Assembly: GCF_964213995.1 (NCBI RefSeq)
Contig: NC_135820.1
Span: 620,001-684,000, forward strand
Length of the DNA stretch: 64,000 nt
From: Mustelus asterias
Lineage: Eukaryota
Direction of reading: 5' to 3'
Below, in pieces: positions 1 to 63,304 of the stretch (its first letter is position 1; each line of letters begins with the position of its first letter). The notes below the pieces were generated by a model that did no database searches, was not told where the DNA came from, and saw only the letters and a program-made list of their open reading frames with translations. The translations under genes and the position numbers were made by a program.

Positions 1-209
1 GTCCCTGGATGTAACGTGAGGAATCACCAATCGCAGCTCATTGTTGGATCTTGTTCTGTTTATTGGGACATTAAGATGTCTCCAGGTCAGGTTAGAAGCT
101 GGGAAGCTCTCGACAGAGCAGATTATCACTGTTGAATTCCCCTCAGTTATACTGATCCATGAAGAGTTAATCATATCAGGAGAAGTCATTGTGACATTCC
201 GTGGTGCAT
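1..209 (-). CDS. Siglec-like gene A, C2-set Ig exon (duplicate of 6417-6698), truncated by window edge
   Basis: Acceptor tttttag|ATGCACCA at 209; phase-1 reading (Y)APRNVTMTSPDMINSSWISITEGNSTVIICSVESFPASNLTWRHL; near-identical to the 6417-6698 exon. Confidence 0.8.
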
Positions 210-338
210 CTAAAAACAAATAAGGATTTTACTGTGAGCAAACACAATGCAGGACGCCATGCTTCATCTCTCTGCATCTGATGTCGATCTGCATTTCCAG
301 GCATCTTCCCTCAATATAAGTTCCTATGTCACATTTAC

Positions 339-790
339 AATGTGGGTGGGTGTGAGGTAGGCATGTGTGCGTGTTGTGTTCATGTGTGTGTGTTTGTGTG
401 GCCTGTTCACATATGCTTGGAATGTGTGTGTGTAATATGCATGTGTGTATCATGTGTGTGTGTCTGTGCATGTGTATGCGTGTGTGCCTGTGAATGTGTG
501 TGCGTGTGTGTGTGTGCTGTGCATGTGTGTATCGTGTGTATGGTGTGCATGTGTGTGAATTTGTTGAATGGTGTGTGTGTGTTTGTGTGTGTGTGTCCAG
601 TAGGCATGTGTGTGGTATGTACGTGTATGGTGTGCATGTGAGTGTGATGTGTGCTTGTGTGGCCTATGAGTGTGTGCGTGTCTTTGTGTGCAGTAGGTGT
701 GTATGTGTGCATGTGTGTTGTGTGCATGGGTGTGATGTGAGTGTGCCGTTTGCATGTGTGTGTTGTCTGAGTGTGTATGTGTGTGCGATT
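339..790. repeat. Degenerate (TG)n low-complexity tract (second copy ~6828-7280)
   Basis: TG/CA-rich imperfect dinucleotide repeat; source of spurious HT/CV-rich ORFs. Confidence 0.95.
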
Positions 791-1364
791 GCAGAATGCT
801 ATGTTCTCAAAGCCATGCAAGTGATCATAAAACTGTGGAAATCATACTTTATTTTTTGTGCTTACTTTAAAATGGGCTTTGCTAAACCAATAGATGGCTG
901 GATTGGGCACAGTTGCTGGAAATTTCGTACAGCAGTTAGAGGGAGTTCTGGAGTTCCAACTTCATCCTTGTGGAATCTCACACCTTATTGGAAGAACACT
1001 TTATATACCAGGGAACCAGAGGACGAGCAGACGATATTCTTCAAGAGAGGCCCCTTGGATTTTGACTTTCTGGACTCGAGCAATCAAGTGAACTGCTGTC
1101 CATTTCTGTGGTTCTCCGTCCTGTTAACCATACTTATTATTGAAAGTCCCACATCCCGATCCCATACTGTATACCTGTGTGCAGCAGTGTATGATGTTGA
1201 CGGCTGTACTTTAGGTTAAACAGAGATTCCATGATGCATCTCCAAACAAATTTGGATCAATTAACGTGCATTGTTTGTGAAGAACTTTGTGACCCTGAGA
1301 ATGTGAAAGGTGTGATATCAATGTAGGTTCCTTCACCACAAAACACGGAAACCAGACACTTCAG

Positions 1365-3060
1365 TTCAGTACTGAGAATGCTGCACTGTCAGAGTGTCAG
1401 TACTGAGGGAGTGCTGCACTGTCAGAGGGTCAGTACTGAGGGAGTGCTGCACTGTCAGAGTGTCAGTACTGAGGGAGTGCTGCACTGTCAGAGGGTCAGT
1501 ACTGAGGTAGTGCTGCACTGTCAGGGGGTCTGGACTGAGGGAGTGCCGCACTGTCAGAGGGTCAGAATTCAGTGAGCGCCGCACTGTCAGAGGGTCAGTA
1601 CTGAGGGAGTGCCACACTGTCAGAGGGTCAGTACTGAGGGAGTGCCGCACTGTCAGAGGGTCAGTACTGAGGGAGTGCCGCACTGTGAGAGTGTCAGTAC
1701 TGAGGGAGTGCCGCATTGTCAGAGGGTCAGTGCTGAGGGAGTGCCGCACTGTCAGAGGGTCAGTACTGAGAGAGTGCCGCACTGTCAGAGGGTCAGTACT
1801 GAGAGAGTGCCACACTGTCAGAGGGTCAGTACTGAGGGAGTGCCGCACTGTCAGAGGGTCAGAACTGAGGGAGTGCCGCACTGTCAGAGGGTCAGAACTG
1901 TACGAGTGCCGCACTGTCAGATGGTCAGTACTGAGGGAGTGCTGCACTGTCAGAGGGTCAGTACCGAGGGGGTGCTGCACTGTCAGAGGGTCAGTACTGA
2001 GAGAGTGCCACACTGTCAGAGGGTCAGTACTGAGGGAGTGCCGCACTGTCAGAGGGTCAGAACTTAGAACATAGAACATAGAACAGTACAGCACAGAACA
2101 GGCCCTTCGGCCCACGATGTTGTGCCGACCTTCATCTGAAACCAAGATCAAGCTATCCCACTCCCTACCATCCTGGTGTGCTCCATGTGCCTATCCAATA
2201 ACCGCTTCAATGTTCCTAAAGTGTCTGACTCCACTATCACTGCAGGCAGTCCATTCCACACCCCAACCACTCTCTGCGTGAAGAACCTACCTCTGATATC
2301 CTTCCTATATCTCCCACCATGAACCCTATAGTTATGCCCCCTCGTAATAGCTCCATCCACCCGAGGAAATAGTCTTTGAACGTTCACTCGATCTATCCCC
2401 TTCATCATTTTATAAACCTCTATTAAGTCTCCCCTCAATCTCCTCCGCTCCAGAGAGAACAGCCCCAGCTCCCTCAACCTTTCCTCATAAGACTGACACT
2501 GCAAACCAGGCAGCATCCTGGTAAATCTCCTCTGCACTCTTTCCAGCGCTTCCACATCCTTCTTATAGTGAGGTGACCAGAACTGCACGCAATATTCCAA
2601 ATGCGGTCTCACCAAGGTCCTGTACAGTTGCAGCATAACCCCACTGAGGGAGTGCCGCACTGTCAGAGGGTCAGAACTGTAGGAGTGCCGCACTGTCAGA
2701 TGGTCCGTACTGAGGGAGTGCTGCACTGTCAGAGGGTCAGTACTGAGGGAGTGCCGCACTGTCAGAGGGTCAGTACTGAGAGAGTGCCACACTGTCAGAG
2801 GGTCAGTACTGAGGGAGTGCCGCACTGTCAGAGGGTCAGAACTGAGGGAGTGCCGCACTGTCAGAGGGTCAGAACTGTAGGAGTGCTGCACTGTCAGATG
2901 GTCAGTACTGAGGGAGTGCTGCACTGTCAGAGGGTCAGTACTGAGGGAGTGCTGCACTGTCAGAGGGTCAGAACTGTAGGAGTGCCGCACTGTCAGATGG
3001 TCAGTACTGAGGGAGTGCCGCAATCCCGGAGGGTTTGAACCGATGGAGTGCTGCAACATC
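1365..3060 (+). repeat. 33-bp minisatellite (GAGGGTCAGTACTGAGGGAGTGCCGCACTGTCA)n, interrupted by a CR1 LINE
   Basis: Tandem 33-nt unit, seen as 11-aa periodic ORFs (PHCQRVSTEGV). Confidence 0.95.
2065..2642 (-). mobile_element. 5'-truncated CR1-clade LINE (RT C-terminus, 3' UTR, (GTTCTAT)n tail)
   Basis: LYRTLVRPHLEYCVQFWSPH...LERVQRRFTRM...RRRLRGDLIEVYK; absent from the paralogous array at 7855-8500. Confidence 0.9.
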
Positions 3061-3185
3061 AGTGGTGAACTTTTAACCAGATAAAGATAAATGTCCATTT
3101 GCGATGTATTGTGCTCTTTATGGTATTTTCCTGTGCATAATCTAGACCATTCGGGCTAATGTAGAATTGATGATGCCTGTATTAC

Positions 3186-3313
3186 GCAACACCGTTAGTA
3201 CGAGGATCCGCTCTGATGAAACAGATGAATATCTCACTCTACAGGTGAGATTGTGTTCGTGGTGTTTGAATGATGGGATCAGGGTCAGAACAGAAGTATA
3301 GGTAAGAGTGACA
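3186..3313 (-). pseudogene. 3' half of a Siglec domain-2 C2 exon (relic)
   Basis: Matches 8632-8759 (TLTYTSVLTLIP...CRVRY); no acceptor, donor region degraded. Confidence 0.85.
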
Positions 3314-5216
3314 ATTGAAAAAAGATTTCAATTCTGATACATTTCTGGGGGCCGGTACTTCCTTAATTGCTTTGAACTTCTCTTCCATAAGTTACAGCTC
3401 ATTTGCATCTACTCTGAACCCTAAACATGTCATTTCTTGAGCCTAGAATGTACATTTCTCCCTTTTTAGCCTCACTCTGGCCTGTTTAAATCTTTTTGAA
3501 GCTTCTTTGAAATTTGCTGGATGTTCCTCTTCGGATGCTTCTGTAATCAGTACACCGTCTAGATAGACAACCAACTTTAGTAGGTTCTGTAGTAAGCTTC
3601 CCATCATGAGCTGGAAAATTTCACACGTCGATGATACCCCGAAGAGTAGCCAAGTATACTGGTATGAGTGTTTGTGGGTGTTGATTGTAACAAATTCTCT
3701 TGACGTCTTGTCTAATTCAAATTGTTGATATACATGGCTCATATCAAGTTTAGTATAATTAAACCTCCTGGAAATTTAGTGTGCAAATCTTCAATTCTTG
3801 GTATTGAGTATCGATCAAATTTTGCTGCTTAATTGAATGTCAATTTGTAGTCCTCACAAATCCCTATGGTTCTATCTGGCTTAACACTGGCATGATGTGA
3901 GTTATGATGTGGAGATTTCTTCACATGTGCTGATGTGATTGACACACACAAGTACACATGATGTGAGTTGCCCACTCCGAAATCTGTACAGGCTTAATAA
4001 TGCCTAATTCATCCAGATTCAAGTTCAGACTCAACCTTATCGTGCAAGACATAGGTATAGGTCAGGCTCTGTTAAATTTGGCCGTGGTCTCAGGACCCAC
4101 ATACATATTTGCATTTAGGCCCTGAAACTTGCCTAATTCATCTTGGAACACCTCCTGATCCTTTTTGAAGACATTCTGGAAGTTTTCATTATAGATCTTG
4201 AAGATTTCCATCCAATTTAATTGAACTTGATGAAGCCAAGCTCAGCCCATCAAACCGAGCCCCTGGCCCTCTACTACTATTAGAGGCAGTTGAGCTGACT
4301 TCTGTGAGTGAATTAGGGGCATTGTTGCTGTTTCTAGGATCCTTAAAGCATCCGCACTATAGGTTGCTAGCATGGCCATCATGCTTCTCAACTGTAGGGG
4401 GCTCAACCCCTCCTTGTAAATAACAAAACGGTTGTTCCTCTATAACTGTAGGGGAGGCACCAGTATCCACCTCCATTCTGAATGGTTGACTGCTTACGCC
4501 GCAGACTAGTCTGTCTCTCAGCATGCCGTTGAGTAATGACCCAAACTTTGTTAAGCCATTTGCCTTAGGCATGCCATGAATGCCGCTATCCACTCCCCTG
4601 GGTTCTTGCTGTCAAATTAAATTTGTATCACTGCATGATCACTGAGGGATTCTGGCAGTAATGACCCTTAATCAATTCAACAAGCTCCTCAAAGGTTTTG
4701 GTGTCGGGTGCATCTGGAGAAGTTAGATTCCTTATCAGGCTGTTAATAGGATTACTTGCTGCTTCCCTCCCCCCAGGTTTAATTGGCCTTAAACAAAATG
4801 CATGCTTTTGACATATTGCACCCACTGCTCCGTGTTAGGTTGAATGGGTCAAGTTTTCCAAAAAGGGGCATTTTAACACTTAAACATGTTGCTGAACATG
4901 TTTGCTGCTTGTCTACCACACGAGGTCTGCTCTCCTGATTTCTGCAGCAATAGGAAGGCACTTCCATTGATCCTTGTCGCCAAATGAAGTATCGTCAAAG
5001 ATGGGCGACCACCAGGTAGGTCAATGGATGAACAATTTATTAGAGGAAAATGACTATTTAGTAGGGTGACATAAAGGCAACTGTATTCCACGACTCCAGA
5101 TTCCTAACTGCAGGGAAAACCCACGCTCAGTCCCATGATTCGTGCCCTCCACTCCAATTGGCTGATTGGATCACATGACCCTCCAAGAACATGCCCCCTA
5201 ATGGGGCACGCTACCC
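3314..5216 (-). mobile_element. Degenerate Gypsy LTR retrotransposon (LTR, PBS, gag, protease, RT), 3'-truncated
   Basis: PBS-like TGGCGACAAGGAT at ~4970-4982; gag MPLFGKLDPF; protease MEVDTGAS; RT YLDGVLI (YxDD-like) in ORF 3443..3742. Confidence 0.85.
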
Positions 5217-5431
5217 CAGTGAGCGAGGTGGTGGGTTTGGAAGGTGCTGCCGAAGGAGCCTTGGTGAGTTGCTGCAGTGCATCTTGTAGATGCTACACAT
5301 GGCTGTCACTGTGCGTCGGTGGTGGAAGGAGTGAATGTTGAAGGTGGTAGAGGGGCTGCCAGCCCAGTGGGCTACTTTGTCCTGGTGTGTGTGTGTGTGC
5401 GTGTGTGATGTTGAAGCCTGTGTACACTCAC

Positions 5432-5713
5432 ATTCCACAGTGATAGTGATGGACCCCTCCACTGCTCCATGTTCATTCTCTGCCACACACTGATAGTCTC
5501 CAGTGTCCCTGGATGTAACGTGAGGAATCACCAACCACAGCTCATTGCTGGATCTTGTTCTGTTCATTGGGACATTAAGATGTCTCCAGGTCAGGTTAGA
5601 AGCTGGGAAGCTCTCGACAGAGCAGATTATCACTGTCGAATTCCCCTCAGAAATATTGATCCATGAAGAGTCAATCATATCAGGAGAACTCATTGAGAGA
5701 TTCCGTGGTACGT
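5432..5713 (-). CDS. Siglec-like gene A, C2-set Ig exon (domain 4)
   Basis: ag|ACGTACCA...GAAT|gtgagt; 282 nt, phase 1-1; ICSVESFPASNLTW...DTGDYQCVAENEHG. Confidence 0.88.
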
Positions 5714-6416: not shown

Positions 6417-6698
6417 GTTCCACAGTGATGGTGATGGACCCCTCCACTGCTCCATGTTCATTCTCTGCCACACACTGATAGTCTCCAGTGTCCCTGGATG
6501 TAACGTGAGGAATAACCAATCGCAGCTCATTGCTGGATCTTGTTCTGTTTATTGGGACATTAAGATGTCTCCAGGTCAGGTTAGAAGCTGGGAAGCTCTC
6601 GACAGAGCAGATTATCACCGTTGAATTCCCCTCAGTTATACTGATCCATGAAGAGTTAATCATATCAGGAGAAGTCATTGTGACATTCCGTGGTGCAT
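6417..6698 (-). CDS. Siglec-like gene A, C2-set Ig exon (domain 3)
   Basis: ag|ATGCACCA...GAAC|gtgagt; 282 nt, phase 1-1; canonical C-W-C Ig residues, several N-x-S/T sequons. Confidence 0.88.
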
Positions 6699-7854
6699 CT
6701 AAAAACAAATAAGGATTTTACTGTGAGCAAACACAATGCAGGACGCCATGCTTCATCTCTCTGCATCTGATGTCGATCTGCATTTCCAGGCATCTTCCCT
6801 CAATATAAGTTCCTATGTCACATTTACAATGTGGGTGGGTGTGAGGTAGGCATGTGTGCGTGTTGTGTTCATGTGTGTGTGTTTGTGTGGCCTGTTCACA
6901 TACGCTTGGAATGTGTGTGTGTAATATGCATGTGTGTATCATGTGTGTGTGTCTGTGCATGTGTATGCGTGTGTGCCTGTGAATGTGTGTGCGTGTGTGT
7001 GTGTGCTGTGCATGTGTGTATCGTGTGTATGGTGTGCATGTGTGTGAATTTGTTGAATGTTGTGTGTGTGTTTGTGTGTGTGTGTCCAGTAGGCATGTGT
7101 GTGGTATGTACGTGTATGGTGTGCATGTGAGTGTGATGTGTGCTTGTGTGGCCTATGAGTGTGTGCGTGTCTTTGTGTGCAGTAGGTGTGTATGTGTGCA
7201 TGTGTGCTGTGTGCATGGGTGTGGTGTGAGTGTGCCGTTTGCATGTGTGTGTTGTCTGAGTGTGTATGTGTGTGCGATTGCAGAATGCTATGTTCTCAAA
7301 GCCATGCAAGTGATCATAAAACTGTGGAAATCATACTTTATTTTTTGTGCTTACTTTAAAATGGGCTTTGCTAAACCAATAGATGGCTGGATTGGGCACA
7401 GTTGCTGGAAATTTCGTACAGCAGTTAGAGGGAGTTCTGGAGTTCCAACTTCATCCTTGTGGAATCTCACACCTTATTGGAAGAACACTTTATATACCAG
7501 GGAACCAGAGGACGAGCAGACGATATTCTTCAAGAGAGGCCCCTTGGATTTTGACTTTCTGGACTCGAGCAATCAAGTGAACTGCTGTCCATTTCTGTGG
7601 TTCTCCGTCCTGTTAACTATACTTATCATTGAAAGTCCCCCTTCCCGATCCCAGACTGTATACCTGTGTGCAGCAGTGTATGATGTTGACGGCTGTACTT
7701 TAGGTTAAACAGAGATTCCATGATGCATCTCCAAACAAATTTGGATCAATTAACGTGCATTGTTTGTGGGGAACTTTGTGACCCTGAGAATGTGAAAGGT
7801 GTGATATCAATGTAGGGTCCTTCACCTCAAAGCACGGAAACCAGACGCTTCAGT

Positions 7855-8500
7855 TCAGTACTGAGAATGCTGCACTGTCAGAGGGTCAGTACTGAGGGAG
7901 TGCTGCACTGTCAGAGTGTCAGTACTGAGGGAGTGCCGCACTGTCAGGGGGTCAGTGCTGAGGGAGTGCTGCACTGTCAGAGGGTCAGTACTGAGGGAGT
8001 GCTGCACTGTCAGAGTGTCAGTACTGAGGGAGTGCCGCACTGTCAGGGGGTCAGTGCTGAGGGAGTGCCGCACTGTCAGAGGGTCAGCACTGAGGGAGTT
8101 CTGCACTGTCAGAGGGTCAATACTGAGGGAGTGCTGCACTGTCAGAAAGTCAGTACTGAGGAGTGCCGCACTGTCAGAGGGCCAGTACTGAGGGAGTGCC
8201 GCACTGTCAGAAGGTCAGTACTGAGGGAGTGCCGCACTGTCAGAGGGTCAGCACTGAGGGAGTGCCGCACTGTCAGAGGGTCAGTACTGAGGGAATGCCG
8301 CACTGTCAGAGGGTCACTACGGAGGGAGTGCTGCACTGTCAGAGGGTCAGTACTGAGGGAGTACTGCACTGTCAGAGTGTCAGTACTGAGGGAGTGCTGC
8401 ACTGTCAGAGGATCAGTGCTGAGGGAGTGCCGCACTGTCAGAGGATCAGTGCTGAGGGAGTGCCGCACTGTCAGATGGTTTGAACCGATGGAGTGCTGCA
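7855..8500 (+). repeat. 33-bp minisatellite (paralog of 1365-3060)
   Basis: Same tandem unit. Confidence 0.95.
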
Positions 8501-8631: not shown

Positions 8632-8925
8632 ATTGCACAGTCAGTCCGAGGATCCGCTCCGATGAAACTGATGGATATCTCACTCTACAGGTGAGATTGT
8701 GTCCGTGGTGTTTGAGTGATGGGATCAGGGTCAGAACAGAAGTATAGGTCAGAGTCACACCATGCTGAGTTACAGAGTTTGAGACTGACCCAGGTACGTC
8801 AGTGGGAGTGTCCCAGGTTAAGACAGGTGCTGTTCCATTGCACGTTGTGTTGAAGGTGCAGCTTATGTCCACACGCTTTCCTGCAATAATTTCAGCAGGG
8901 AATATCGTGGGTTTATCTGTGAAAT
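8632..8925 (-). CDS. Siglec-like gene A, domain-2 C2-set Ig exon
   Basis: ag|ATTTCACAG...CAAT|gtaagt; 294 nt; DFTDKPTIFP...CTFNTTCNGTAPVLTW...NLTCRV with the extra Cys typical of Siglec domain 2. Confidence 0.9.
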
Positions 8926-10730: not shown

Positions 10731-11096
10731 CAGAAACGCGAAGCCGGGTTACAGGGTAGTAGCTGTAACTATTCTTTTTGTCAAATTCTATTCTGAAATA
10801 ATAAGGTCCAGCATCTCCCCGTGTGATGTTGTTTATAATCAGGGAACAGTTGCCATCTTTCAGGTCTCCAGACAGCCGGGTCTGATGGTGGAATTGTGGT
10901 GCCTCCTGATTGTGATCCCCGGAGTGAAAGGCGATAGATGATGATGAATATTCCTCATTATTAAACCAGATTCCGACTCGCGGCTGGTTTGCCAAATGTG
11001 ATGGATAACTGTACTGACATGGAATCTGTACACACACACCTTCCTGTGTTGTCACCTCTTGTGGAGTGTTGCCTTTCCACTCCTGTGACAGTCCAA
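10731..11096 (-). CDS. Siglec-like gene A, V-set (sialic-acid-binding type) exon
   Basis: ccag|TTGGAC...TCTG|gtaagt; 366 nt; VTTQEGVCVQIPC...W...GDLKDGNCSLIINNITRGDAGPYYFRIE (B-E strand Cys pair, essential Arg). Confidence 0.92.
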
Positions 11097-12357: not shown

Positions 12358-12371
12358 CTCTCATAGATGAG

Positions 12372-22093: not shown

Positions 22094-22133
22094 CTTGGAG
22101 AAGTGACAGGAGGAAGTAAGATTTCCCGATCAT
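22094..22133 (-). CDS. Siglec-like gene A, signal-peptide exon (exon 22094-22175 including 5' UTR)
   Basis: ATG ATC GGG AAA TCT TAC TTC CTC CTG TCA CTT CTC CAA G|gtaata = MIGKSYFLLSLLQ; phase 1 joins V exon to give ...LLQVGLSQEW; conserved at 40440 and 62761. Confidence 0.88.
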
Positions 22134-22829: not shown

Positions 22830-23172
22830 GTTGGTCAGGGTGTTTCACACCACTTCTCTTACCTGAGGCAGGAGGTCATGGGTTTGAGACACCATTCCTG
22901 AGAATGGAATCCCATAATGCAGATCAACACTCCTCAGTGTCATTACTGAAGGAGCGCAGCACTGTTGGAGGGTCAGTACTGAGGGAGTGCAGCACTGTCA
23001 GAGGGTCAGTACTGAGGGAGTGCCACACTGTCAGAGGGTCAGTACTGAGGGAGTGCCGCACTGTCAGAGGGTCAGTACTGAGGGAGTGCTGCACTGTCAG
23101 AGGGTCAGTACTGAGGGAGCGCCACACTGTGAGAAGGTCAGTACTGAGGGAGTGCTGTACTGTCAAAGGGTC
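22830..23172 (+). mobile_element. DeuSINE (SacSINE1-like) 5' part running into the 33-bp minisatellite
   Basis: Degenerate tRNA-like head followed by CAGTGTCATTACTGAAGGAGCGCAGCACTGTTGGAGG then tandem units. Confidence 0.55.
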
Positions 23173-26890: not shown

Positions 26891-27386
26891 TGTGTGTTAC
26901 AAGATGGTGACAGATTTAGATGAGGCAAACAATGAAAAGGTGTTGCTGGTATTTGATGGTTCAAGGACTGAGGGAGGGGGGCACAGAATTAATGTTTTTG
27001 GTAGTGAAGCTGATTTGAGGAAGATCTTTTTGTCCAGTGAGTGGTAACAACCTGGAACCCACTGTATACGAAGGGGGTGAAAGCAGAGACGATGAATGAT
27101 TTCAAAAGGAAATTGGATGGAGACTTGAGGGTAATAAACTTGCAGCGATACGGGGAGAGAGCGAGGGGAATGGGAATGACTGGATTGACCTATAGAGAGA
27201 TAGTATGGACTGGACAGGCTAAATGGCCTCCTCCACTGCCAGAATGACTCTTTGACACTAAAGTGATTCTAACCAGGACCACTGAGTGGTTTCATTGCAA
27301 CTTAACCCAACAGCGCACGTTATTTGTCTTCACTGACAGACGAGATCGTTACTGTATGAAGCTTTAAACAATCTGTCCGCTTCCTT

Positions 27387-27496
27387 TCACTGTTTGTCGC
27401 TGCCAGACACAAACCCAGTGATAACGACACCCACAGTGAATATCATAGCTCGTATTCCCAGGATCAGGATCACGTTCAGAATCTCTCCTCCACTGT
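27387..27496 (-). pseudogene. Candidate TM exon with intramembrane Arg and very short tail (gene B)
   Basis: ctag|AC AGT... phase 1: SGGEILNVILILGIRAMIFTVGVVITGFVSGSDKQ*; weak polypyrimidine tract. Confidence 0.45.
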
Positions 27497-29907: not shown

Positions 29908-30276
29908 CAGAAACATGAAGCCGTGTTACAGGCAAATAGCTGTAGCTATTCCTGCTGCCAAATTCTATTCTGAAATAATAAGGTCCAGCATCTTCCCATC
30001 TGACGTTGCTTATAATTAGGGAACAGTTGCCATCTTTCAGGTCTCTAGACAGCCGGGTTCGATTGTGGAACCGTGGCAACTTGTGATTGTGATCCTTGGA
30101 GTAGAAAGCGAGGAGGACATTGGGAATATGTTCCTCATTATCAAACCAGCCTCCATCTCGTGGTTGATTCTCCAGACATGATGGGTAACTGTAATGGCAT
30201 GGAATCTGTACACCTGAACCTTCCTGCGCTGTCACCTCTCGTGGAGTGTCACCTTTCTACTCTTGTGACAGTTCAG
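29908..30276 (-). pseudogene. Gene B second V-set exon (pseudo)
   Basis: Acceptor AG->AA; in-frame TAG at 30259-30257 (Trp codon in paralogs); SCVQ->SGVQ; donor intact; YYFR retained. Confidence 0.88.
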
Positions 30277-34170: not shown

Positions 34171-34536
34171 CAGAAACATGAAGCCGGGTCACAGGATAGT
34201 AGCTGTAACTATTCTTGTCAGTAAATTCTATTTTGAAATAATATGGTCCTGCATCTGCCCATCTGATGTTGTTTATAATGAGGGAACAGTTGCCATCTTT
34301 CAGGTCTCCAGACAGCCGGGTCTGCTGGTGGAACCATGATGATATACTATTGTGATCCTTGGAGTGAATGGCTATAGAGGATGTTCCCTGTTTCTCGTTA
34401 TTGTACCAGATTCCATCTCGCGGCTGGTTTGCCAAATGTGATGGATAACTGTAATGACGTGGAATCTGTACACACGAACCGTTCTGCGCTGTCATCTCTC
34501 GTGGAATGTTGCTTTTCCACTTCTGTGATAGTCCAA
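34171..34536 (-). pseudogene. Gene B first V-set exon (pseudo)
   Basis: Open frame, but B-strand Cys->Arg (IPRH), essential Arg->Lys (YYFK), and splice donor removed by a 10-nt deletion between CAGAA repeats. Confidence 0.88.
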
Positions 34537-37340: not shown

Positions 37341-37342
37341 CA

Positions 37343-38437: not shown

Positions 38438-38474
38438 CACAAGCTTTCGGAGCTCTTAGCCCCTTCTTCAGGTG
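38438..38474 (-). ncRNA. Minimal hammerhead ribozyme motif in the Penelope terminal repeat
   Basis: Reverse complement of the 40189-40225 motif. Confidence 0.6.
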
Positions 38475-40188: not shown

Positions 40189-40225
40189 CACCTGAAGAAG
40201 GGGCTAAGAGCTCCGAAAGCTTGTG
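40189..40225 (+). ncRNA. Minimal hammerhead ribozyme motif in the Penelope terminal repeat
   Basis: CAC-CTGAAGA-A-GGGGC(TAAGA)GCTCC-GAAA-GCTT-GTG. Confidence 0.6.
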
Positions 40226-40439
40226 TGGCTTTTGCTACCAAATAAACCTGTTGGACTTTAACCTGGTGTTGTTAAACTTCTTACTATATTAGTGAGCACA
40301 GGGGTGATGGGTGAATGGGAATTGATCTGAGTTTGTACACTGGGTCACTGCTGAATTGGTTCCCAATGAGAGCTCAACAAGAATGATCTTTTATAAAGAC
40401 TATTAACCATAAATCTGTCCGAGCTGGCGATGATATTAC

Positions 40440-40479
40440 CTTGGAGAAGTGACAGGAGGAAGTAAGATTTCCCGATCAT
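40440..40479 (-). pseudogene. Gene B signal-peptide exon (intact itself; exon 40440-40521)
   Basis: MIGKSYFLLSLLQ, G|gtaata; downstream V exons are defective. Confidence 0.8.
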
Positions 40480-40930: not shown

Positions 40931-41070
40931 CCAGGACCTGTCTGTCTGCTCACCTGGGGAGTAACTGCTGACCCGCTCTGCTTGGGCTGAATGTCCTCTT
41001 CCTGTGCTGCTCCCTCTGTGTGTTTAATTAGAAAGGGTTGATGTGTCACTGTGAGTCAAAATGAGGAAGT
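40931..41070 (-). promoter_or_regulatory. Putative non-coding first exon and promoter of gene B
   Basis: Donor TGG|gtaagt at 40931; AP-1 TGAGTCA 41052-41058; adjacent GAGGAAGT (PU.1/ETS-like) 41063-41070. Confidence 0.55.
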
Positions 41071-43535: not shown

Positions 43536-44519
43536 GCTTACATGTTTCGATATAATCGCCTTTTGTTCTTCTAAACTCCAAGGGGTAAAGGCCCAAATCT
43601 GCTCAACCGTTCCTCATCAGACAACCCCCGTCATCCCAGGAATCAGCCCAGCCCAGTGAACCTTCTCTGAAATGGACCCACTGTGAGTATATCCCTTCTT
43701 AAAGAGAGAACAATGTAAACAGTACTCCAGGTGTGGTCTCACCAAAGCCATGTACATTTATTGCAAGATTCCCTCACTCATATACCCCTTTTCAGAAAAG
43801 GAGAACACTTCCTGATTCTTTGCTATACCAGAGTGGTAATATTTTATGATTCATGTACAAGGGCACCCAGATCCCTCTGTACTGCAGCATTCTGCAGCCT
43901 CTCTGCATTTAAATAATATTCTGCTTTTCTAATCTTCCTGCTGAACTGGATTACCTCACATTGTCCCTCATAATATTCCATCAGACAAATATTTTGTCCA
44001 CTCACTGAATCTATTAATATCCCTTTGCAGCCTCTTTGTGTCCTCCTCACAACTTTCTTTCCTACCTTGCTTAAATTTTTCCCACCTACCTGATAGCACA
44101 GTCAGAAAATCTGGCTCCAGCATGGTTGGTTCCTTCATCCAAGTCATTCATGTGGATTGTAAATAGTTGAGGTCATATCACTGATCCCTCTGACACTTCC
44201 CGTGTTATGGTTTGCCAACCTGAATATGATCTATTTATCCCGAGTCTGTTTCCTGCTGGTTACCCAGTCCTACATCCATTCTAATATTTCACCCCAACAC
44301 TATCAATTTTATCTGTTACAGTAACCTTTTATATGGCACCATATTGAATGACTTTTGGAAATCCAAATAGACTACATCTACTGGTTCCCCATTATCCACC
44401 CTGCTTGTTACAACCTCATGGAACTCTAATATATTTTGCATCCTTGATATCCTTTTCACAAAACCATGTTGACTCTGCCTGATTGTATTATGATTTTCTA
44501 CATGTCCTCCTACTGCCTC

Positions 44520-48449: not shown

Positions 48450-48624
48450 TCAGTTTCGCTGGAATCTGAGCTGTGCGTATTCCGTGACCTCGCTCCTGTG
48501 CACAGTCCCATCACCGCTGGGCAGCACCAAGAAGTTGATGTTGGCGTAGAGAAGGTTGTCGGGTCTGTTGGTGTGTCCATGGATATGTGCGTGAGAGCAG
48601 CTGCAGCAACTCTCATTCCAGGCA
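48450..48624 (-). CDS. Siglec-like gene C, terminal cytoplasmic exon with ITIM and ITSM-like motifs
   Basis: ccttctcctgtag|T GCC TGG...; phase 2: (N)AWNESCCSCSHAHIHGHTNRPDNLLYANINFLVLPSGDGTVHRSEVTEYAQLRFQRN*; this frame is not in the ORF track. Confidence 0.85.
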
Positions 48625-52418: not shown

Positions 52419-52515
52419 TTTCTCACAAACATGAAGATGAAGATTCCAGCCAGGAAAATGCCCAACATGATCCCAGTTGTGAGCAATCCTGCTATCCAGT
52501 TACTGGTGTCTCTCT
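52419..52515 (-). CDS. Siglec-like gene C, transmembrane exon (uncharged)
   Basis: tttttacag|AG AGA...GTG AGA AA|gtaagt; (Q)RDTSNWIAGLLTTGIMLGIFLAGIFIFMFVR; 97 nt, phase 1-2. Confidence 0.88.
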
Positions 52516-54560: not shown

Positions 54561-54842
54561 GTTCCACAGTGATGGTGATGGACCCCTCCACTGCTCCATG
54601 TTCATTCTCTGCCACACACTGATAGTCTCCAGTGTCCCAGGATGTAACGTGACGAATCACCAACCACAGCTCATTGTTGGATCTTGTTCTGTTCATTGTG
54701 ACATTAAGATGTCTCCAGGTCAGGTTAGAAGCTGGGAAGCTCTCGACAGAGCAGATTATCACTGTCGAATTCCCCTCAGTTATATTGATCCAGGAAGCAT
54801 CAAACATATCAAACAAAGTTATTGAAAGATTCTGCGGTGCAT
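54561..54842 (-). CDS. Siglec-like gene C, membrane-proximal C2-set exon
   Basis: ag|ATGCACCG...GAAC|gtgagt; 282 nt, phase 1-1. Confidence 0.9.
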
Positions 54843-54974
54843 CTAAAAACAAATGAAGATCAGTTAACTTACATGGACTGTGAATTACTTTGAGAGACTC
54901 TGAGAATGTGAAGGTGTGATATCAACATAGGTTCCTTCACCACAAACCGGGTAAACCAGAGACAAACTTTAGTT

Positions 54975-56140
54975 CAGTCCTGTGAGAGTGCGCACTGTCA
55001 GAGGGTCAGTGCTGAGGGAGTGCCGCACTGTCAGAGGGTCAGTGCTGAGGGAGTGCCGCACTGTCAGAGGGTCAGTACTGAGGTAGTGCTGCACTGTCAG
55101 AGGGTCAGTACTGTGAGAGTGCCGCACTGTCAGAGGGTCAGTGCTAAGGGAGTGCCGCACTGTCAGAGGGTCAGTGCCGTGAGAGTGCCGCACTGTCAGA
55201 GGGTCAGTGCTAAGGGAGTGATGCACTGTCAGAGGGTCAGTAGTGAGGGAGTGCCGCACTGTCAGAGGGTCAGTACTGAGGGAGTGGCGCACTGTCAGAA
55301 GGTCAATACTGAGGGAGTGCCACACTGTCAGAGGGTCAGTACTGAGGGAGTGCCGCACTGTCACAGGGTCAGTACTGAGGGAGTGCCGCACTGTCAGAGG
55401 GTCAGTACTGAGGGAGAGCTGCACTGTCAGAGGGTCAGTACTGAGGGAGAGCTGCACTATCAGAGGGTCAGTACTGAGGGAGTGCCGCACTGTCAGAGGG
55501 TCAGTACTGAGGGAGTGCCACACTGTCAGAGGGTCAGTACTGAGGGAGTGCCGCACTGTCAGAGGGTCAGTACTGAAGGAGTGCCACACTGTCACAGGGT
55601 CAGTACTGAGGGAGCACTGCACTGTCAGAGGATCGGTACTGAGGGAGTGCCGCACTGTCAGAGGGTCAGTACTGAGGGAGTGCCACACTGTCGCAGGGTT
55701 AGAATCTTAGAATCATAAAATCCTGCAGTGCAGAAGGAGACCATTCAGCCCATCTAGTCTGCACCGACCACAATCCCACCCAGCCCGTATTCCATAATCC
55801 CATGCATTTACCCTAGCTATTACCCCTGATACTTACGGGCTATTTAGCATCGCCAATCCACTTAACCTGCACATCTTTGGACTGTGGGAGGAAATCGGAG
55901 CACCCATGCAGATAAGGGGAAAACGTGCAAATTCTACACAAACAGTGACCCAAGGTGGGAATCGAATCCAGGTCCCTGGCGCTGTGATGCATCAGTGCTA
56001 ACCTCTGTACCACCGTGCCACCCTTAGAGGATTAGTACTGAGGGAGTGCTGCGTTGTTGGAGGGTCAGGGCTGAGGGAATATTGCAATTTTAGAGGGTCA
56101 GTACAGAGGTAGTGCTGAACTGTCAGAGGTTCCATCTTTC
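54975..56140 (+). repeat. 33-bp minisatellite with inserted HE1-like SINE (55700-56023, minus), ending in Deu-domain-like sequence
   Basis: Same unit and same intron position as in gene A. Confidence 0.9.
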
Positions 56141-56331
56141 ATATGATATATGATATCATATCATGGGATATAAATGATCCCAAGACATGATGTGATGGAG
56201 TGTTCTCACGAGGCAGTGCCGCTATTTAAAGGCAGACACACCAGCCCAAACCACAGTGCTGCTAGTGGGATATTACTGTGCAGAATGGAAACTATTACAC
56301 CTCATGTAGAATGAATTATATCTGTACTTAC

Positions 56332-56625
56332 ATTGCACAGTTAGTACGAGGATCCGCTCCGAAGAAACAGATGGGTATCTCACTCTACAGGTGAGATTGT
56401 GTCCATGGTGTTTGAGTGATGGGATCAGGGTCAGAACAGAAGTATAGGTCAGAGTAACACCATGCTGAGTTACAGTGTTTGAGACTGACCCAGGTACGTC
56501 AGTGGGAGTGTCCCAGGTTACGACAGGTGCTGTTCCATTGCACGTTGTGTTGAAGGTGCAGCTTATGTTCACACGCTTTCCTGCAATAATTTCAGCAGGG
56601 AATATCGTGGGTTTATCTGTGAAAT
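56332..56625 (-). CDS. Siglec-like gene C, domain-2-type C2-set exon
   Basis: ag|ATTTC...CAAT|gtaagt; 294 nt; 4 aa differences from the gene A exon. Confidence 0.9.
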
Positions 56626-57239
56626 CTAACACACAGAGAATGGATCCTTTTAGATAAATATAACATGAAGCATCAGTTCAAATAGAAATCACAGCCCCAC
56701 AAGAGAAAGCACTGTTACAAGGATGAAATCAGAATTGAGAGATTACAATGATCAGGAAAGAATTTCCTATTTTCAGACTTGCTGAAACTCTGTCAGCAGC
56801 TTAATACACTTTCACTCAGTGACCCTTGATTTGACCAGACTGGGTGAGGGTGGAGGGACAGCTCACAGCTCGGGGAGAACAGGTTCATCACTTTGTCCAA
56901 AGCCTGCCAAATTTAAATTAAATCCTGTTTGCGATAGGACAGAAACAGTTTGAAACTATCTCTGAACCAACAGCTAAAACAGAATAAGAATTCTATTGGA
57001 GTGGAAACATTGAGCGGGTTTTTACAGCCTCGCTTGGGCGAGACCGGAAATTCCCGCCTCAGGTCAATGGAGATTTCCATTGTCGGACCCTCACCCTCGC
57101 CAATTCCGTGGCGGGCGAGGTGGTGGAGTTCTGGCCATTATCCCTGTTTCTCTCTCGGCAGACACTGGCGGCCCAGCTGAGCTTTTCCAGCATTTTCTGA
57201 TTTTATTTTAGGTATCCGGAATCTGCAGTAATTTTGTTT

Positions 57240-58315
57240 TTCCTGGAATCAGAAAAGACCATAAAATATAGGAACAGATGTTGGCCATTCTGCCCCTCGA
57301 GCCTGCTCCACCATTCCAAAGGATCAGGGATGATCCAACATTCCTCACATCCACTTTCCAGTCCTTTCCCCGTAACCCTTGATTCCTTTACTCTCCCAGC
57401 CTTAAAGAAACACAAGGGCTCTGCCCCCACAGCTCCCTGTGGCAAGGGTTCAAAGACTCACTACCCACTGAGAGAAGAACCTCATGCTCATCTCAATCTT
57501 AAGTTGGTGCCCCTTTATTCTGAGAATATTTTCTCTGGTCCTGGACTCTGTCATGAAGGGAAACATCCTCTCAGTATTTACCATGTCAAGCCACTTAAGA
57601 ATCAAGTTGATTCAATTCGATCACCCCTCATTCTTCTAAAGTCCCAACCTGGTTAACCTTTCCTCCATATCGGGGATCATCCTCGTGAACCCTCTCTGAA
57701 CTGCCTCCAATTAAATAAAATCTTTCTAACCCCCTTGAAATAAAGGCTAACATTCCATTACCCTTCCTGATTACCTCTGTACCTGTGTGCTAGCTTTCTG
57801 TGTTTCATGCACAAGTTTCCCCCAAGCCCCTTTGTGTTGCAGCTTTCTGCAGTTTTTCTCCATTTAAATAATACTCTGTTCTTTTGTTCTCCCTTCCAAA
57901 ATGAACAACTTCGCATTTTCCCACATTATTACCACGAAGCATGAGAGGTGACCTGATAGAGGTGTACAAGATGTAGAGATTGGGTGGATTCTCGGAGGCT
58001 TTTTCCCAGGGCTGAAGTGGCTGCTACAAGAGGACACAGGTTTAAGGTGTTGGGGGGTAGGTGCAGAGGAGATGTCAGGGGTACGTTTTTCACTCAGAGG
58101 GTGGTGGGTGAGTGGAATCGGCTGCCATCAGTGGTGGTGGAGGCAAACTCGATAGGGTCTTTTAAGAGACTTCTGGATGAGTACATGGAACTTAATAGGA
58201 TTGAGGGTTATAGGTAAGCCTATATATAAGCCTAGGTAGGTAGGGACATGACCGGCGCAACTTGTGGGCCGAAGGGCCTGTTTGTGCTGTATTTTTTCTA
58301 TGTCCTATGCTCTAT
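57240..58315. mobile_element. CR1 fragments (minus ~57240-57930; plus ~57935-58315)
   Basis: TRGHRFKVLGGR...FFTQRVVGEWNRLP. Confidence 0.7.
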
Positions 58316-58879
58316 ATTCCATTTGCCAACTTTCTGCCCAGGTAGTTAACCTATCAACATCTCTTTGTAAACTGTTTGTATCCCTCTTGCTCAGGTTATT
58401 AATCAGGTTATTGATCAGATTGCTGTCTGTGGGAGCTTGCTGTGCACAAATTATTCACTAATAAATCCAATCTGGAATTCAGCAGGGACTCATTTACCAC
58501 AGTGTTCAGAATGTGAAATTCAGGAATTATTTAATTGTCTGTGAATCAATTTGTGATGTCCTGAGGTGGTGACAGGTGCTATAGAAATGTGAGTCTTTCT
58601 TGTGCCGATATGTCAGACTATTAAACAGGATGAGAGAGATCGATGGGATTGGATAACCCGATAACATTGATGGACGCAGTCAGTATATTTAATCATTGAT
58701 ATTAAAGTGAGTATTAGAGGTTGCTTTAGGACTGAACTGGAAGCTATCACCAGGTAATTGATAAGCAGACACTGTAATAATAAGCTGTGTTTTGTGTGAA
58801 TATGTAAACATCACAGTTTGTGTTATTTCCCATTGAGTGATGAATGTGAATTATTGAGTAATTATAACACAGAACTTAC

Positions 58880-59245
58880 CAGAAACGTGAAGCTGGGTTA
58901 CAGGGTAGTAGTTGCATCTATTCTTGCCGTCAAATTCTATTCTGAAAAAATAAGGTCCAGCATCTCCCCGTCTGACGTTGTTTATAATCAGGGAACAGTT
59001 GCCATCTTTCAGGTCTCCAGACAGCCGGGTCCGATTGCGGAACCGTGATGATATACTATTGTGATCCTTGGAGTAAAAGGCTACAGACGATGATGATTGT
59101 CCCTTGCCATTATACCAGACTCCATCTCGTGGTCGGTGTCTCAGACACGATGGATAACTATACTGACATGGAATCTGTACACACGAACCTTCCTGCGCTG
59201 TCACCTTTTGTGGAGTGTCACCTTTCCATTCCTGTGACGGTTCAG
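58880..59245 (-). CDS. Siglec-like gene C, second V-set exon
   Basis: ccag|CTGAAC...TCTG|gtaagt; 366 nt; AEPSQEW...SCVQIPCQYSYPSC...GNCSLII...DAGPYFFRIE...NRCNYY. Confidence 0.9.
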
Positions 59246-59697
59246 CTGGGGTGAGAAATATCAACATTTAACACTGGATGGATTGTCAATCCTCAAAATG
59301 TACAGATGGGAGTGAATTGGGGCCATGATCAATACCGAGGAGGACTGCAGTGAATTACAGGAAGATATTAATAAATATACTGGATGGACAGATAATTGAC
59401 AACTGAATTTCAACATTAATAAATGTGAAGTATTATATCTTGGTTCGAAAGATGAGGAGTTTGCATCTGACCTCGAAAACGTAAATCGAAATGGATTAGA
59501 GGAACAGTTTGATCTGAGAAACAAATACACAAATCAGTAAAGGTAGAGATACAGGTGAACAAAGTGATGAAACAAACAATCCAAACATGAGAGATTATTT
59601 CTAGAGGGATGGAATTCGGAAAGTCGAGAAGTTATCTTCAACCTGTCTTGAACCTTGGCCAGACCACAGCTGGAGTAACGAGTACAGTTCTGGTCAC

Positions 59698-60930
59698 CTT
59701 ATTGAGTTTTTTGAGAAAGTGACCAAGGAGGTGGATGGGGGCAAGGCAGTGGACGTGGTATATATGGATTTTAGTAAGGCGTTTGATAAGGTTCACCATG
59801 GTAGGCTTCTGCAGAAAATGCAGATGTATGGGATTGGGGGTGATCTAGGAAATTGGATCAGGAATTGGCTAGCGGATAGGAAACAGAGGGTGGTGGTTGA
59901 TAGTAAATATTCATCATGGAGTGCGGTTACAAGTGGTGTACCTCAGGGATCTGTTTTGGGGCCACTGCTGTTTGTAATATTTATTAATGATCTGGATGAG
60001 GGTATAGTTGGGTGGATTAGCAAATTTGCTGATGACACCAAAGTCGGTGGTGTGGTAGACAGTGAGGAAGGGTGTCGTAGTTTGCAGGAAGACTTAGACA
60101 GGTTGCAAAGTTGGGCCGAGAGGTGGCGGATGGAGTTTAATGCGGAGAAGTGTGAGGTAATTCACTTTGGTAGGAATAACAGATGTGTTGAGTATAGGGC
60201 TAACGGGAGGACTTTGAATAGTGTGGAGGAGCAGAGGGATCTAGGTGTATGTGTGCATAGATCCCTGAAAGTTGGGAATCAAGTAGATAAGGTTGTTAAG
60301 AAGGCATATGGTGTCTTGGCGTTTATTGGTAGGGGGATTGAATTTAGGAGTCGTAGCGTTATGTTGCAACTGTACACAACTCTGGTGCGGCCGCACTTGG
60401 AGTACTGTGTGCAGTTCTGGTCCCCACATTACAGGAAGGATGTGGAGGCTTTGGAGAGGGTGCAGAGGAGGTTTACCAGGATGTTGCCTGGTATGGAGGG
60501 GAGATCCTATGAGGAGAGGCTGAGGGATTTGGGATTGTTTTCGCTGGAAAGGCGGCGGCTAAGAGGGGATCTTATTGAAACATATAAGATGATTAGAGGT
60601 TTAGATAGGGTGGATAGTGATAGCCTTTTTCCTCTGATGGAGAAATCCAGCACGAGGGGGCATGGCTTTAAATTGAGGGGGGGTAGTTATAGAACCGATG
60701 TCAGGGGTAGGTTCTTTACCCAGAGGGTGGTGAGGGATTGGAATGCCCTGCCAGCATCAGTAGTAAATGCGCCTAGTTTGGGGGCGTTTAAGAGATCCGT
60801 AGATAGGTTCATGGACGAAAAGAAATTGGTTTAGGTTGGAGGGTCACAGTTTTTTTTTTTAACTGGTCGGTGCAACATCGTGGGCCGAAGGGCCTGTTCT
60901 GCGCTGTAATGTTCTATGTTCTATGTTCTA
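59698..60930 (+). mobile_element. Young CR1 LINE (open 371-aa RT ORF) nested in an old CR1 (~59300-61250)
   Basis: DFSKAFDKVHH...SGVPQGSVLGP...KFADDTK; (GTTCTAT)n tail. Confidence 0.93.
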
Positions 60931-61597
60931 TATTATACAAAAGGTTGGAGAGACACTGGAGAGGGTGATAAAAAGATTTACAAGGATGATATTGGAAATG
61001 TGAGGGTTTATCTGTCAGGTGCAGATGAATGAACTGGGTCTCGATTCTCCTGAAAAGAGAAGGTTCAGGCTTGACCATATAGAGAACAGTAACATTCGGA
61101 AAGGCTTTGGTGTAGAGGAGACACAGGGAGAAAGTTTCCACTTGTGAGGAAGATAGACCCAGAGGCTAAAAATATAAGATAGTCACTAATAAATCCAATC
61201 CGCAATTCAGAAGATTCTTATTTGTCCAGAGAATGGTGAGAATGGAGAAATTCAGGAATTAATTCATTGCCTGTGATCTGAGGCGGTGACAGGCGCTATA
61301 GAAATGTGAGTCTTTCTTTTCTCGATATGTTAGACTTTTAAACAGCATTAGAGAGATCTATGGGATTGGATAACCCGATAACATTGATGGACGCAGTCAG
61401 TACATTTAATCATTGATATTAAAGTGAGTATTAGAGGTTGCTTTAGGACTGAACTGGAAGCTATCACCAGGTTATTGATAACCAGACACTGGGTTATAAT
61501 AAGTTGTGTTTTGTGTCAATATGTAAACATCACAGTTTGTGTTATTTCCATTGAGTGATGAATGTGAATTATTGAGTAATTATAACACAGAACTTAC

Positions 61598-61963
61598 CAG
61601 AAACCTGAAGCTGGGTTACAGGGTGGAAGCTGTAATTATTTCTGTTCTCAAATTCTATTCTGAAATAATAAGGTCCTGCATCTCCCCGTGTGACGTTGTT
61701 TATAATCAGGGAACAGTCGCCATCTCTCAGGTCTCCAGACAGCCGGGTCCGATGGCGGAACTGTGACAACTCACGATTGTGATCCTTGGAGTGAAAGGCG
61801 ATAGATGATACATTCCGTATCTCGTTATTGTACCAGATTCCAACTCGCGAATGGTTTGCCAAATGTGATGGATAAGTGTAATGACATGGAATCTGCACAC
61901 ACGAACCTTCCTGTGCTGGCACCTCTCGTGGAGTGTTGTCTTTCCACTCTTGTGACAATCCAA
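61598..61963 (-). CDS. Siglec-like gene C, first V-set exon
   Basis: ccag|TTGGAT...TCTG|gtaagt; 366 nt; VGLSQEW...SCVQIPC...GDCSLII...DAGPYYFRIE. Confidence 0.92.
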
Positions 61964-62760
61964 CTGGCGAGAGAAATATCGACATTTAACACAGGGAGCT
62001 GAATATCAACACCCTTTTCAAATTTTCTAGCACGGTGTGAATGGACAGGAAGTGGGATGCTGAACAGCCTGTCTATTCTCGGAGCTTCTATGTTGTTTTC
62101 GTGGAACATTCTGACCAAAATTAGCAAAAGGCAGATAGTCTGAGCCAAGGCTATCAGAGGCGCAGCATCAGATTTCATCCCCAGTTTTTATCCCAGTCTC
62201 TCTACTCCACTGTTACTTGCTCATCTCCATTGGTTGCAGGCTCAGAAATGCCTCGTATTTAAAATTCTCATCCTCAATTTCCAAACCCTACATCAATCCC
62301 CACTCGATTTCCTATCTCTGTAACCTCCTCCAGCCCCGACAACGCTCGCTGTCTCTGTGACCTCCTCCCACCCCTACAACCCTTCCTATCTCAGTACCTC
62401 CTCCAGTCCGAACAACACTCCCTATCTGTGTAACCTCCTCCAGTGCCGACAATCCTCCCTATCTCTGTAACCTCCTCCAGCCCCCATAACACTCCCTATC
62501 TCTGTAACCTCCTCCAGCTCCTACACCTCTCCCTATCTCTGTAACCTCCTCCAGCCCACACATCCCTCCTATCTCTGTAACCTCCCATCAGACGGGGAGT
62601 CAGTGTATATCAGTGAGCACAGGGGTGATGGGTGAATGGGACTTGGTGAGAGTTTGTACACTGGGTCACTGCTGAATTGGCTCCCAATCAGAGCTCAATA
62701 AGAATGATCTTTTACAAAGACTATTAACCATAAATCTGTCCAAGCTGGCGATGATATTAC

Positions 62761-62800
62761 CTTGGAGAAGAGACAGGAAGAAGTAAGATTTCCCGATCAT
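62761..62800 (-). CDS. Siglec-like gene C, signal-peptide exon (exon 62761-62842)
   Basis: MIGKSYFFLSLLQ, G|gtaata. Confidence 0.88.
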
Positions 62801-63304
62801 TGTCCACTCCCAAATATTTCACCAGCTTCTCCCTCTCAAGCTCTGAAAGAGAAAGGAGTTAATGAGACCTCACCCTTGTCCGACAGCTGTCAAGTGATCA
62901 GAACTGCTTTTAGACAATGTCTTCACAGCCTTGTGGTCTGATTTGCCACACTTTGACAAATCAGACCACAAGGCTGTGCTCCTGCTCCCGGCTTACAAAC
63001 AAAAATTGAAGCGGGAGAATCCATCAAAGAGAGTCGTGCAATGTTGGGCTGAGGAATCGGATGATCTCCTACGGGGCTGCTTGGAGTCAGTGGACTGGTC
63101 AGTGTTTAAAAACTCTGCGACCAGCCTGAACGAGTACGCCACTACAGTAACTGACTTCATTAGTAAGTGTGCAGAAGACTGTGTGTCAAAGAAGCAAATC
63201 CACGTGTTTCCCAACCCGAAACCATGGATGACCAGGGATACCCACTGCTTGCTGAAGTCCAGGTCTGAGACATTCAAGTCAGGCAACACTGACCGACACA
63301 AGAA

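Follow-up and report, generated by a model that had tools for sequence, protein, structure and literature searches.

How are the sialic acid-binding receptors of sharks built, and are they the counterparts of the CD33-related (CD33r) Siglecs of mammals? Both questions are raised by a stretch of 64,000 nucleotides from Mustelus asterias (contig NC_135820.1, positions 620,001 to 684,000), in the following called the window, in which exon copies were mapped by a six-frame motif scan and then by blastn and tblastn with the exons of its first gene, unit 1. As a first-pass annotation of this DNA had claimed, the window holds three paralogous minus-strand units sharing a 40-nucleotide leader exon (62800-62761, 40479-40440 and 22133-22094; 95% alike; MIGKSYF(L/F)LSLLQ) and five V-set exons starting at 61963, 59245, 34536, 30276 and 11096. 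Of these units, the first is the only one that is both intact and fully contained in the window; the second is a pseudogene, and the third continues beyond the left end. With a probability of roughly 60% we read the locus as a tandem cluster of elasmobranch-specific Siglecs that are CD33r-like in their way of working and expanded separately, and in which internal V exons lengthen the receptor into a disulfide-linked chain of two to seven potential binding domains. Exon structure, motifs, lesions, cysteine distribution and separate clade are observed here, and V-V splicing, disulfide formation, binding and signalling are inferred.

The coding exons of unit 1 are the following:

62761..62842, minus strand: leader exon; ATG at 62800, 40 coding nucleotides, acceptor AG 42 nucleotides upstream of the ATG
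61598..61963, minus strand: V1 exon, V-set domain of the first type with Trp20, Cys35, Cys40, Cys97 and Arg115 and without a Cys in the B-C loop; Pfam V-set 49.9 bits, Ig_CD22 40.1 bits
58880..59245, minus strand: V2 exon, V-set domain of the internal type with Arg237, the extra B-C loop Cys169 and Cys246 in place of the G-strand Tyr
56332..56625, minus strand: first C2-set exon (C2a) with the extra Cys286; RNA-type contigs of relatives splice at both its acceptor and its donor
54561..54842, minus strand: second C2/I-set exon (C2b), assigned from sequence and Pfam
52419..52515, minus strand: uncharged transmembrane exon; matched by 57 homologous proteins, not in the RefSeq model
48450..48624, minus strand: last exon with LLYANI, distal TEYAQL and stop; same junction in P0005 and P0040

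Their lengths add up exactly as had been stated before (40 + 366 + 366 + 294 + 282 + 97 + 175 = 1620 nucleotides, giving 539 amino acids), all six introns are of the GT-AG type with phases 1, 1, 1, 1, 1 and 2, and the single stop codon is terminal. The product consists of a signal peptide, V, V, C2, C2, an uncharged transmembrane segment and a tail which, as annotated earlier, ends in an immunoreceptor tyrosine-based inhibitory motif (ITIM; LLYANI) and a distal ITIM-like motif (TEYAQL). With respect to public annotation the gene is not hidden, as had been stated, but already available as RefSeq XP_078093144.1 (P0010), ‘sialic acid-binding Ig-like lectin 13 [Mustelus asterias]’, where the name ‘Siglec-13’ is an automatic best-hit label and not a statement of orthology. 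This entry and our model are identical over residues 1-449 and in the last exon (final 57 residues), and two other segments stand where the transmembrane exon belongs, so that the public model lacks a membrane anchor, which is of practical importance. Judged from the sequence, the seven-exon version is the better one, because the transmembrane exon is matched by the 57 homologous proteins and the same transmembrane-to-tail junction is found in the Mustelus paralog P0005 and in the catshark model P0040. Unit 1 is a real, correctly assembled gene of a known family, and its exon structure is not due to chance, given the identity to RefSeq and the RNA-type contigs of relatives splicing at the same C2a acceptor and donor. 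The earlier claim of a complete gene holds for the coding sequence and does not extend to the 5' non-coding exon, which is seen in units 2 and 3 and is not adjacent in unit 1, where the upstream likeness to the other units ends at 62928 with repeat DNA beyond. As a search of intron 6 with eight paralog tails revealed no further cytoplasmic exons of the kind present in 113-residue tails, unit 1 belongs to the short-tail type. Immediately inside the membrane (48624-48590) lies a Cys-rich stretch with three Cys (488-491), also present in P0005 and partly in P0040, for which palmitoylation would be a guess.

The assignment to the Siglec family, already made in the first-pass annotation, is supported by Pfam, by the ranking of PDB sequences, by the aligned essential Arg and Cys residues and by a separate Siglec clade. 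All three V exons tested match Pfam V-set and Ig_CD22 above the cut-off, C2a matches C2-set_2 and C2b matches Ig_3/I-set. With the V2 exon as query against PDB, 17 Siglec sequences precede the first non-Siglec (E 6e-10), with MAG, CD33, sialoadhesin and Siglec-7 at 5e-15 to 2e-13. A V+C2 profile scored CD33 highest (125 bits), followed by Siglec-5 (113), Siglec-10 (108), MAG (107), Siglec-8 (104), CD22 (54) and Siglec-15 (47.5), and it aligned the essential Arg and all Cys with Siglec structures. Arg115 and Arg237 of unit 1 align with the essential Arg of MAG, CD33 and sialoadhesin. Siglec V domains are characterized by a Cys pair within one sheet, between strands B and E, and by the lack of an F-strand Cys; here Cys40/97 and Cys162/219 align with the B-E pair of CD33 and MAG, and the F strand reads Y(Y/F)FR without Cys. 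Aromatic residues on the A and G strands flank the binding site of Siglecs, and both V domains of unit 1 have the A-strand Trp, with the G-strand Tyr present in V1 and Cys246 at its place in V2. Cys157 and Cys286 align with the interdomain pair that connects V and first C2 domain in CD33, a disulfide between domains 1 and 2 which passages of PMC10122656 describe for Siglec-6.

A search with the V2 exon led to 86 homologous proteins from 127 candidates, the named ones all from sharks and rays (20 named species); since isoforms are included and the query was of the internal type, frequencies in this set are not unbiased. The essential Arg is present in 129 of their 136 V domains, with Lys in five, the ITIM together with the distal ITIM-like motif in 21 of the 86 proteins and a MAG-domain-5-like motif in 23. 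In three ray models with four V domains (P0011, P0012, P0101) Arg and Lys alternate at the essential position. A second shark Siglec-like lineage with Tyr instead of the essential Arg (P0206, P0229 and the N-terminal parts of P0018 and P0030) is probably a neighbour of the cluster, as two gene models fuse it with members of the family. Among exon pairs of the window, dN/dS (NG86) was 0.83-0.97 in four V pairs, 0.23 in one C2a pair and 0.51-0.65 in three C2b pairs; the binding domain is the variable part of the receptor, with dN/dS alone being no proof of positive selection.

Adjacent V domains were found in 28 of the 86 models and in nine of the 20 named species, two rays among them, with up to seven V domains per model in Cetorhinus, six in Scyliorhinus torazame, four in S. 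canicula, Mobula and Hypanus and three in Mustelus. The internal domains carry a cysteine overlooked in the first-pass annotation: a B-C loop Cys at +7 from the B-strand Cys occurs in 36 of 45 internal and in one of 82 first V domains (nine gapped domains set aside; Fisher p 5e-22, a figure that ignores kinship), or in 32 of 41 and one of 69 once identical rows are removed. The extra Cys of the first C2 domain, at +6 from its B-strand Cys, aligns with the interdomain Cys of CD33. The donor Cys is retained in every ungapped V domain (127/127), and 33 of 48 adjacent V pairs combine an upstream donor Cys with a loop Cys in the next V. In the Ig fold the B-C loop points to the domain before it and the donor Cys to the domain after it, and a disulfide chain is therefore the simplest reading. 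For unit 1 the bonds Cys35-Cys169 and Cys157-Cys286 are predicted, with Cys246 left unpaired. At least 19 of the internal V domains tallied start with an AEPS/AELS-type sequence instead of the signal-peptide end VGLS. The Cys pattern of the internal V fits best with a single inherited class of exon, found in sharks and rays alike. Outside the elasmobranchs, none of 11 internal V domains from ten tandem-V models has a Cys at the +7 position, one of them having it at +4. The V1 and V2 blocks of unit 1 (61180-61995 and 58452-59277) are 84% identical over 830 bases, downstream intron included, which shows a tandem duplication of the V exon block.

The V exons of the family fall into two classes, the internal one carrying its loop Cys at a site equivalent to the acceptor of the domain 1-2 disulfide in the first C2 domain, so that each V domain could be bonded to the next one. 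Duplication of the phase 1-1 internal V exon would then generate a chain of two to seven potential binding domains. Unit 1 would be an inhibitory type I receptor whose Arg-bearing V-set domains bind sialylated glycans and whose ITIM and distal Tyr motif recruit SHP-1/SHP-2, as expected from established Siglec biology, while the transmembrane Arg of unit 2 may have paired with an adaptor bearing an immunoreceptor tyrosine-based activation motif before this unit decayed. A bolder version is that a dedicated internal V exon of sharks and rays makes daisy-chained, disulfide-linked rigid rods with two to seven sialic acid sites, multivalent within one polypeptide, in inhibitory and Arg-transmembrane activating versions, and all derived from a CD33r-type ancestor of the first jawed vertebrates; we regard this as tentative and on the whole doubtful.

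Several observations weigh against a disulfide-linked chain. Nine of the 45 internal V domains have no loop Cys, and in an independent-pairs test of loop Cys against V position, underpowered with six pairs, the association was not independent of kinship (median p 0.25). Tandem V models are not confined to elasmobranchs and include mammalian (Siglec-12), turtle, frog and bony fish ones. The G-strand Tyr position is occupied by His in 24 of 37 Cys-bearing V domains and by Cys246 in V2 of unit 1, so binding by internal V domains may be weak or absent. Every multi-V protein comes from gene prediction, and P0018, P0030 and P0137 are plainly fusions of neighbouring genes. As to splicing, contigs from four sequencing runs guessed to be RNA, all from other organisms, were aligned to 55710-62300 only, with 82% likeness. 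One X1 contig joins the 3' end of a V to C2a at 56626, record 25 of X5 covers V and then C2a, and contigs of X3 and X5 diverge from the genome at 56332, where the C2a donor is predicted; this supports splicing at the predicted sites in the family and not of unit 1 itself. None of the 15 joints displayed for these contigs (242 more were not displayed) connects V with V, and in X5 record 25 the single V exon is preceded by about 34 letters, so that there is room for one V only. Among short proteins, a search for a transcript-derived V-V junction gave seven hits from 25 candidates, all of them single-V database models and none spanning such a junction.

The contig joints displayed, which run from V to C2a only, would fit ordinary single-V Siglecs whose V exons are alternatives, used one per transcript, or leftovers of neighbouring genes joined by the predictors, and this is also compatible with the phases of the V exons (all 1-1 and thus skippable in frame) and with the fused models in the homolog set. 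It nevertheless appears unlikely, as the internal V exons differ systematically from the first ones in loop Cys and AEPS/AELS-type start, unit 1 has one leader and lacks a promoter-like leader block in the stretch from V1 to V2, and RefSeq joins V1 and V2 identically. That the extra Cys serves a homodimer or a bond to another protein instead of an intrachain V-V link, we consider improbable: an equally useful loop Cys for dimers would be expected in first V domains as well, where it occurs once in 82, an upstream donor Cys goes with a loop Cys in the next V in 33 of 48 adjacent pairs, and the spacing of +7 is close to the +6 of C2a. Unit 1 V2 does have an unpaired cysteine in Cys246, and the predicted fold is of low confidence (AlphaFold of P0010 from a 17-row alignment, mean predicted local distance difference test 53.6, predicted template modelling score 0.33), leaving Foldseek uninformative with TM-scores below 0.25 by query. 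From the same poor model Foldseek ranks the secretory component first, and one homolog was automatically named pIgR-like, as if the family did not belong to the Siglecs and were a multi-V receptor like pIgR/CD300 or JAML. The Foldseek rows have TM-scores of 0.18-0.20 at 14-16% identity, and by sequence pIgR reaches 38 bits, below the 50-59 of the best Siglecs. Receptors of the pIgR/CD300 type have a canonical B-F disulfide in each V domain, whereas the shark domains show the Siglec Cys pattern, with Arg where a canonical V has its F-strand Cys. A pIgR/CD300 identity was rejected for the missing B-F disulfide and the Y(Y/F)FR strand, and any such receptor is hardly credible here.

The descent of the family bears on another explanation, which accepts the mechanism of the chained receptor and changes its history, namely that the family is a true co-ortholog of the CD33-related Siglecs of bony vertebrates and that a CD33r ancestor with ITIM and ITIM-like motif already existed in the first jawed vertebrates. 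We reconstructed trees from V+C2a rows of the homologs and 150 representatives (20 named), to which human and mole CD22 and hamster Siglec-10 were added; the only MAG row is the N-terminal part of a chimpanzee MAG-CD22 read-through model, and after omission of 22 of 59 rows as redundant the tree comprised 37 rows, Siglec-1 and Siglec-15 not among them. The elasmobranch family forms one clade (100/97) and the teleost and tetrapod CD33-like genes form another one (100/97). In the best tree both clades and three shark ‘MAG-like’ models are united, apart from MAG and CD22, by a branch (86/88) that reached 92 in the Shimodaira-Hasegawa-like approximate likelihood ratio test of another tree. CD33 as top PDB profile hit and the tail layout, matching that of CD33r, also favour co-orthology. 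The branch is, however, unstarred, and in the approximately unbiased (AU) test neither MAG (p 0.245) nor CD22 (p 0.252) is rejected as sister of the family in this sampling without Siglec-1 and Siglec-15; furthermore, the alignment of long family members with MAG extends across all of its five-domain ectodomain (198 bits), and there is the MAG-domain-5-like motif of the 23 proteins mentioned above. With regard to synteny there is the indirect observation that in Pristis and Heptranchias the length of the longest contig is the same for family members and for CD22-like or MAG-like models. We therefore give co-orthology somewhat less than an even chance. The topology uniting the family exclusively with mammalian CD33r was rejected (p-AU 0.0105), as was nesting within mammalian CD33r; from this and the separate clades we conclude that the elasmobranch expansion is independent of that of mammalian CD33r. 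Orthology of unit 1 to MAG was rejected as well, since V-V-C2-C2 in a multi-copy cluster stands against a five-domain single gene. Our homolog searches retrieved no true shark MAG, Siglec-1 or Siglec-15 sequence.

With regard to the first-pass annotation, the lineage-specific expansion with birth-and-death turnover is borne out by the single elasmobranch clade and by a cluster with dead and duplicated copies. Its CD33r-like character stands for the functional layout (ITIM plus ITIM-like tail, cluster, pseudogenes, activating partners) and falls for a common clade with mammalian CD33r alone, and the V+C2 phylogeny it had proposed as a check gives a separate Siglec clade, for which MAG or CD22 may be the sister.

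Layout features of CD33-related Siglecs found in the cluster are the Cys pattern, the tandem arrangement, a pseudogene and an activating-type partner with Arg in the membrane. The mammalian members (CD33, Siglec-5/14, -7, -8, -10, -11/16) likewise have a V-set domain with essential Arg, the Siglec Cys pattern, a tail with ITIM and ITIM-like motif, a tandem cluster with pseudogenes and paired inhibitory and activating members. They form a separate clade, and the shark family differs from them by chains of up to seven V domains and a dedicated internal V exon with B-C loop Cys. Mammals and sharks are separated by about 400 million years. MAG (Siglec-4) is a single-copy, conserved, neural protein that ranks first or nearly first in PDB searches with single proteins, with long members aligning over all its five domains, whereas unit 1 has two V, two C2 and an ITIM tail and belongs to a multi-copy and variable family. 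Siglec-12 shares the V-V-C2-C2-transmembrane-ITIM layout of unit 1 (P0202, P0203), but a B-C loop Cys is missing from its second V domain and it nests among mammalian CD33r, so that the V-V layout arose separately; its two V-set domains are noted in passages of PMC6288428, and passages of PMC13358205 and PMC6288428 describe inhibitory/activating Siglec pairs in mammals.

According to passages of PMC7226832, which concern bony fish and do not mention sharks, fish regularly have only Siglec-1, CD22, MAG and Siglec-15, and ITIM-bearing CD33r are absent. A 2026 survey (PMC13262535) places the Siglec family under Tetrapoda, and a paper on the whale shark has a single mention of Siglecs, in the context of Ig families of jawed vertebrates, with its supplementary file 9 possibly listing them. 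In the openly searchable literature we found no description of a shark Siglec cluster or of chained V domains, and subscription papers on Siglec evolution may mention shark genes; the family is thus automatically annotated in about 20 species and apparently undescribed. What seems to be new is the internal V exon class with its Cys together with the activating partners, as far as predicted models and the Cys pattern indicate. If true, inhibitory and activating shark members would trace the paired-Siglec pattern, commonly explained by a race of hosts and pathogens over sialic acid, to cartilaginous fish, or show that it evolved twice. Single Siglec sites are weak and function depends on their clustering, and a natural chain of binding domains could be a new route to avidity or to the reading of polysialic acid.

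Unit 2 consists of these remains:

40931..41066, minus strand: probable 5' non-coding exon, inferred, conserved with unit 3; donor GTAAGT after 40931, 5' end approximate
40440..40479, minus strand: leader exon, by likeness to the other leaders
34171..34536, minus strand: V1 pseudo-exon; Arg in place of the B-strand Cys, Lys in place of the essential Arg, splice donor removed by a deletion
29908..30276, minus strand: V2 pseudo-exon of the internal type; in-frame stop, acceptor AG lost, B-C loop Cys retained
27364..27496, minus strand: activating-type exon for transmembrane segment and short tail; Arg in the membrane (ILGIRAMIF), frameshift near the 3' end, 81% to Carcharodon P0026/P0028

Two short direct repeats bracket the 10-base deletion that removed the donor of V1 (34171, minus strand), and no C2 exon was found downstream of the V exons by blastn and tblastn of the window with unit 1 exons. 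An Arg-bearing transmembrane exon with short tail, which the first-pass annotation had missed in unit 2, is intact in six of the 86 homologs, from three species. Passages of PMC13358205 and PMC6288428 name Siglec-14 and Siglec-16 as activating members of paired Siglecs, and by analogy unit 2 may be the decayed activating half of a paired system. Its use as a live variable cassette for unit 3 was rejected, both of its V exons being broken. About 155 bases into the intron after its leader sits a Penelope-like element (38378-40285) with two 886-base inverted arms, which is recent as judged by their identity (98.9%) and shows a weak GIY-YIG match (E 2e-4). The broken V1 exon is flanked by a 198-base inverted repeat, 99% alike (33447-33644 and 34691-34888).

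Unit 3 and the C2 duplications following it comprise:

22094..22133, minus strand: leader exon; a probable 5' non-coding exon has its donor after 22582
10731..11096, minus strand: single V exon of the first type; Arg present, open
8632..8925, minus strand: first C2-set exon, 96.6% nucleotide identity to unit 1
6417..6698, minus strand: second C2/I-set exon, by likeness to unit 1
5432..5713, minus strand: duplicate of the second C2 exon, open, GT-AG
3190..3313, minus strand: 3' fragment of a C2a exon; repeat DNA bearing reverse transcriptase stands in place of the 5' part
1..209, minus strand: third C2b exon, truncated at the edge of the window; it lies in a block (1-2008) that repeats 6490-8496 with 96% identity

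It is open through leader, V, C2a, C2b and the second C2b, with transmembrane segment and tail lying outside the window, and none of eight Mustelus proteins checked matches it exactly. Units 2 and 3 have about 590 bases upstream of the ATG in common, including the splice donors at 40931 and 22582. A 33-base minisatellite (1366-2064, 2643-3055, 7855-8500, 22939-23172 and 54974-55699) occurs upstream of unit 3 and, in each copy, within the intron that separates C2a from C2b; it could promote unequal exchange among C2 exons. Between the units and in introns there are repeat fragments bearing reverse transcriptase (3330-5300, 25148-26988, 31022-32143, 41677-43600 and 62946-64000), identified by self-matches and by Pfam RVT_1 on three open reading frames.

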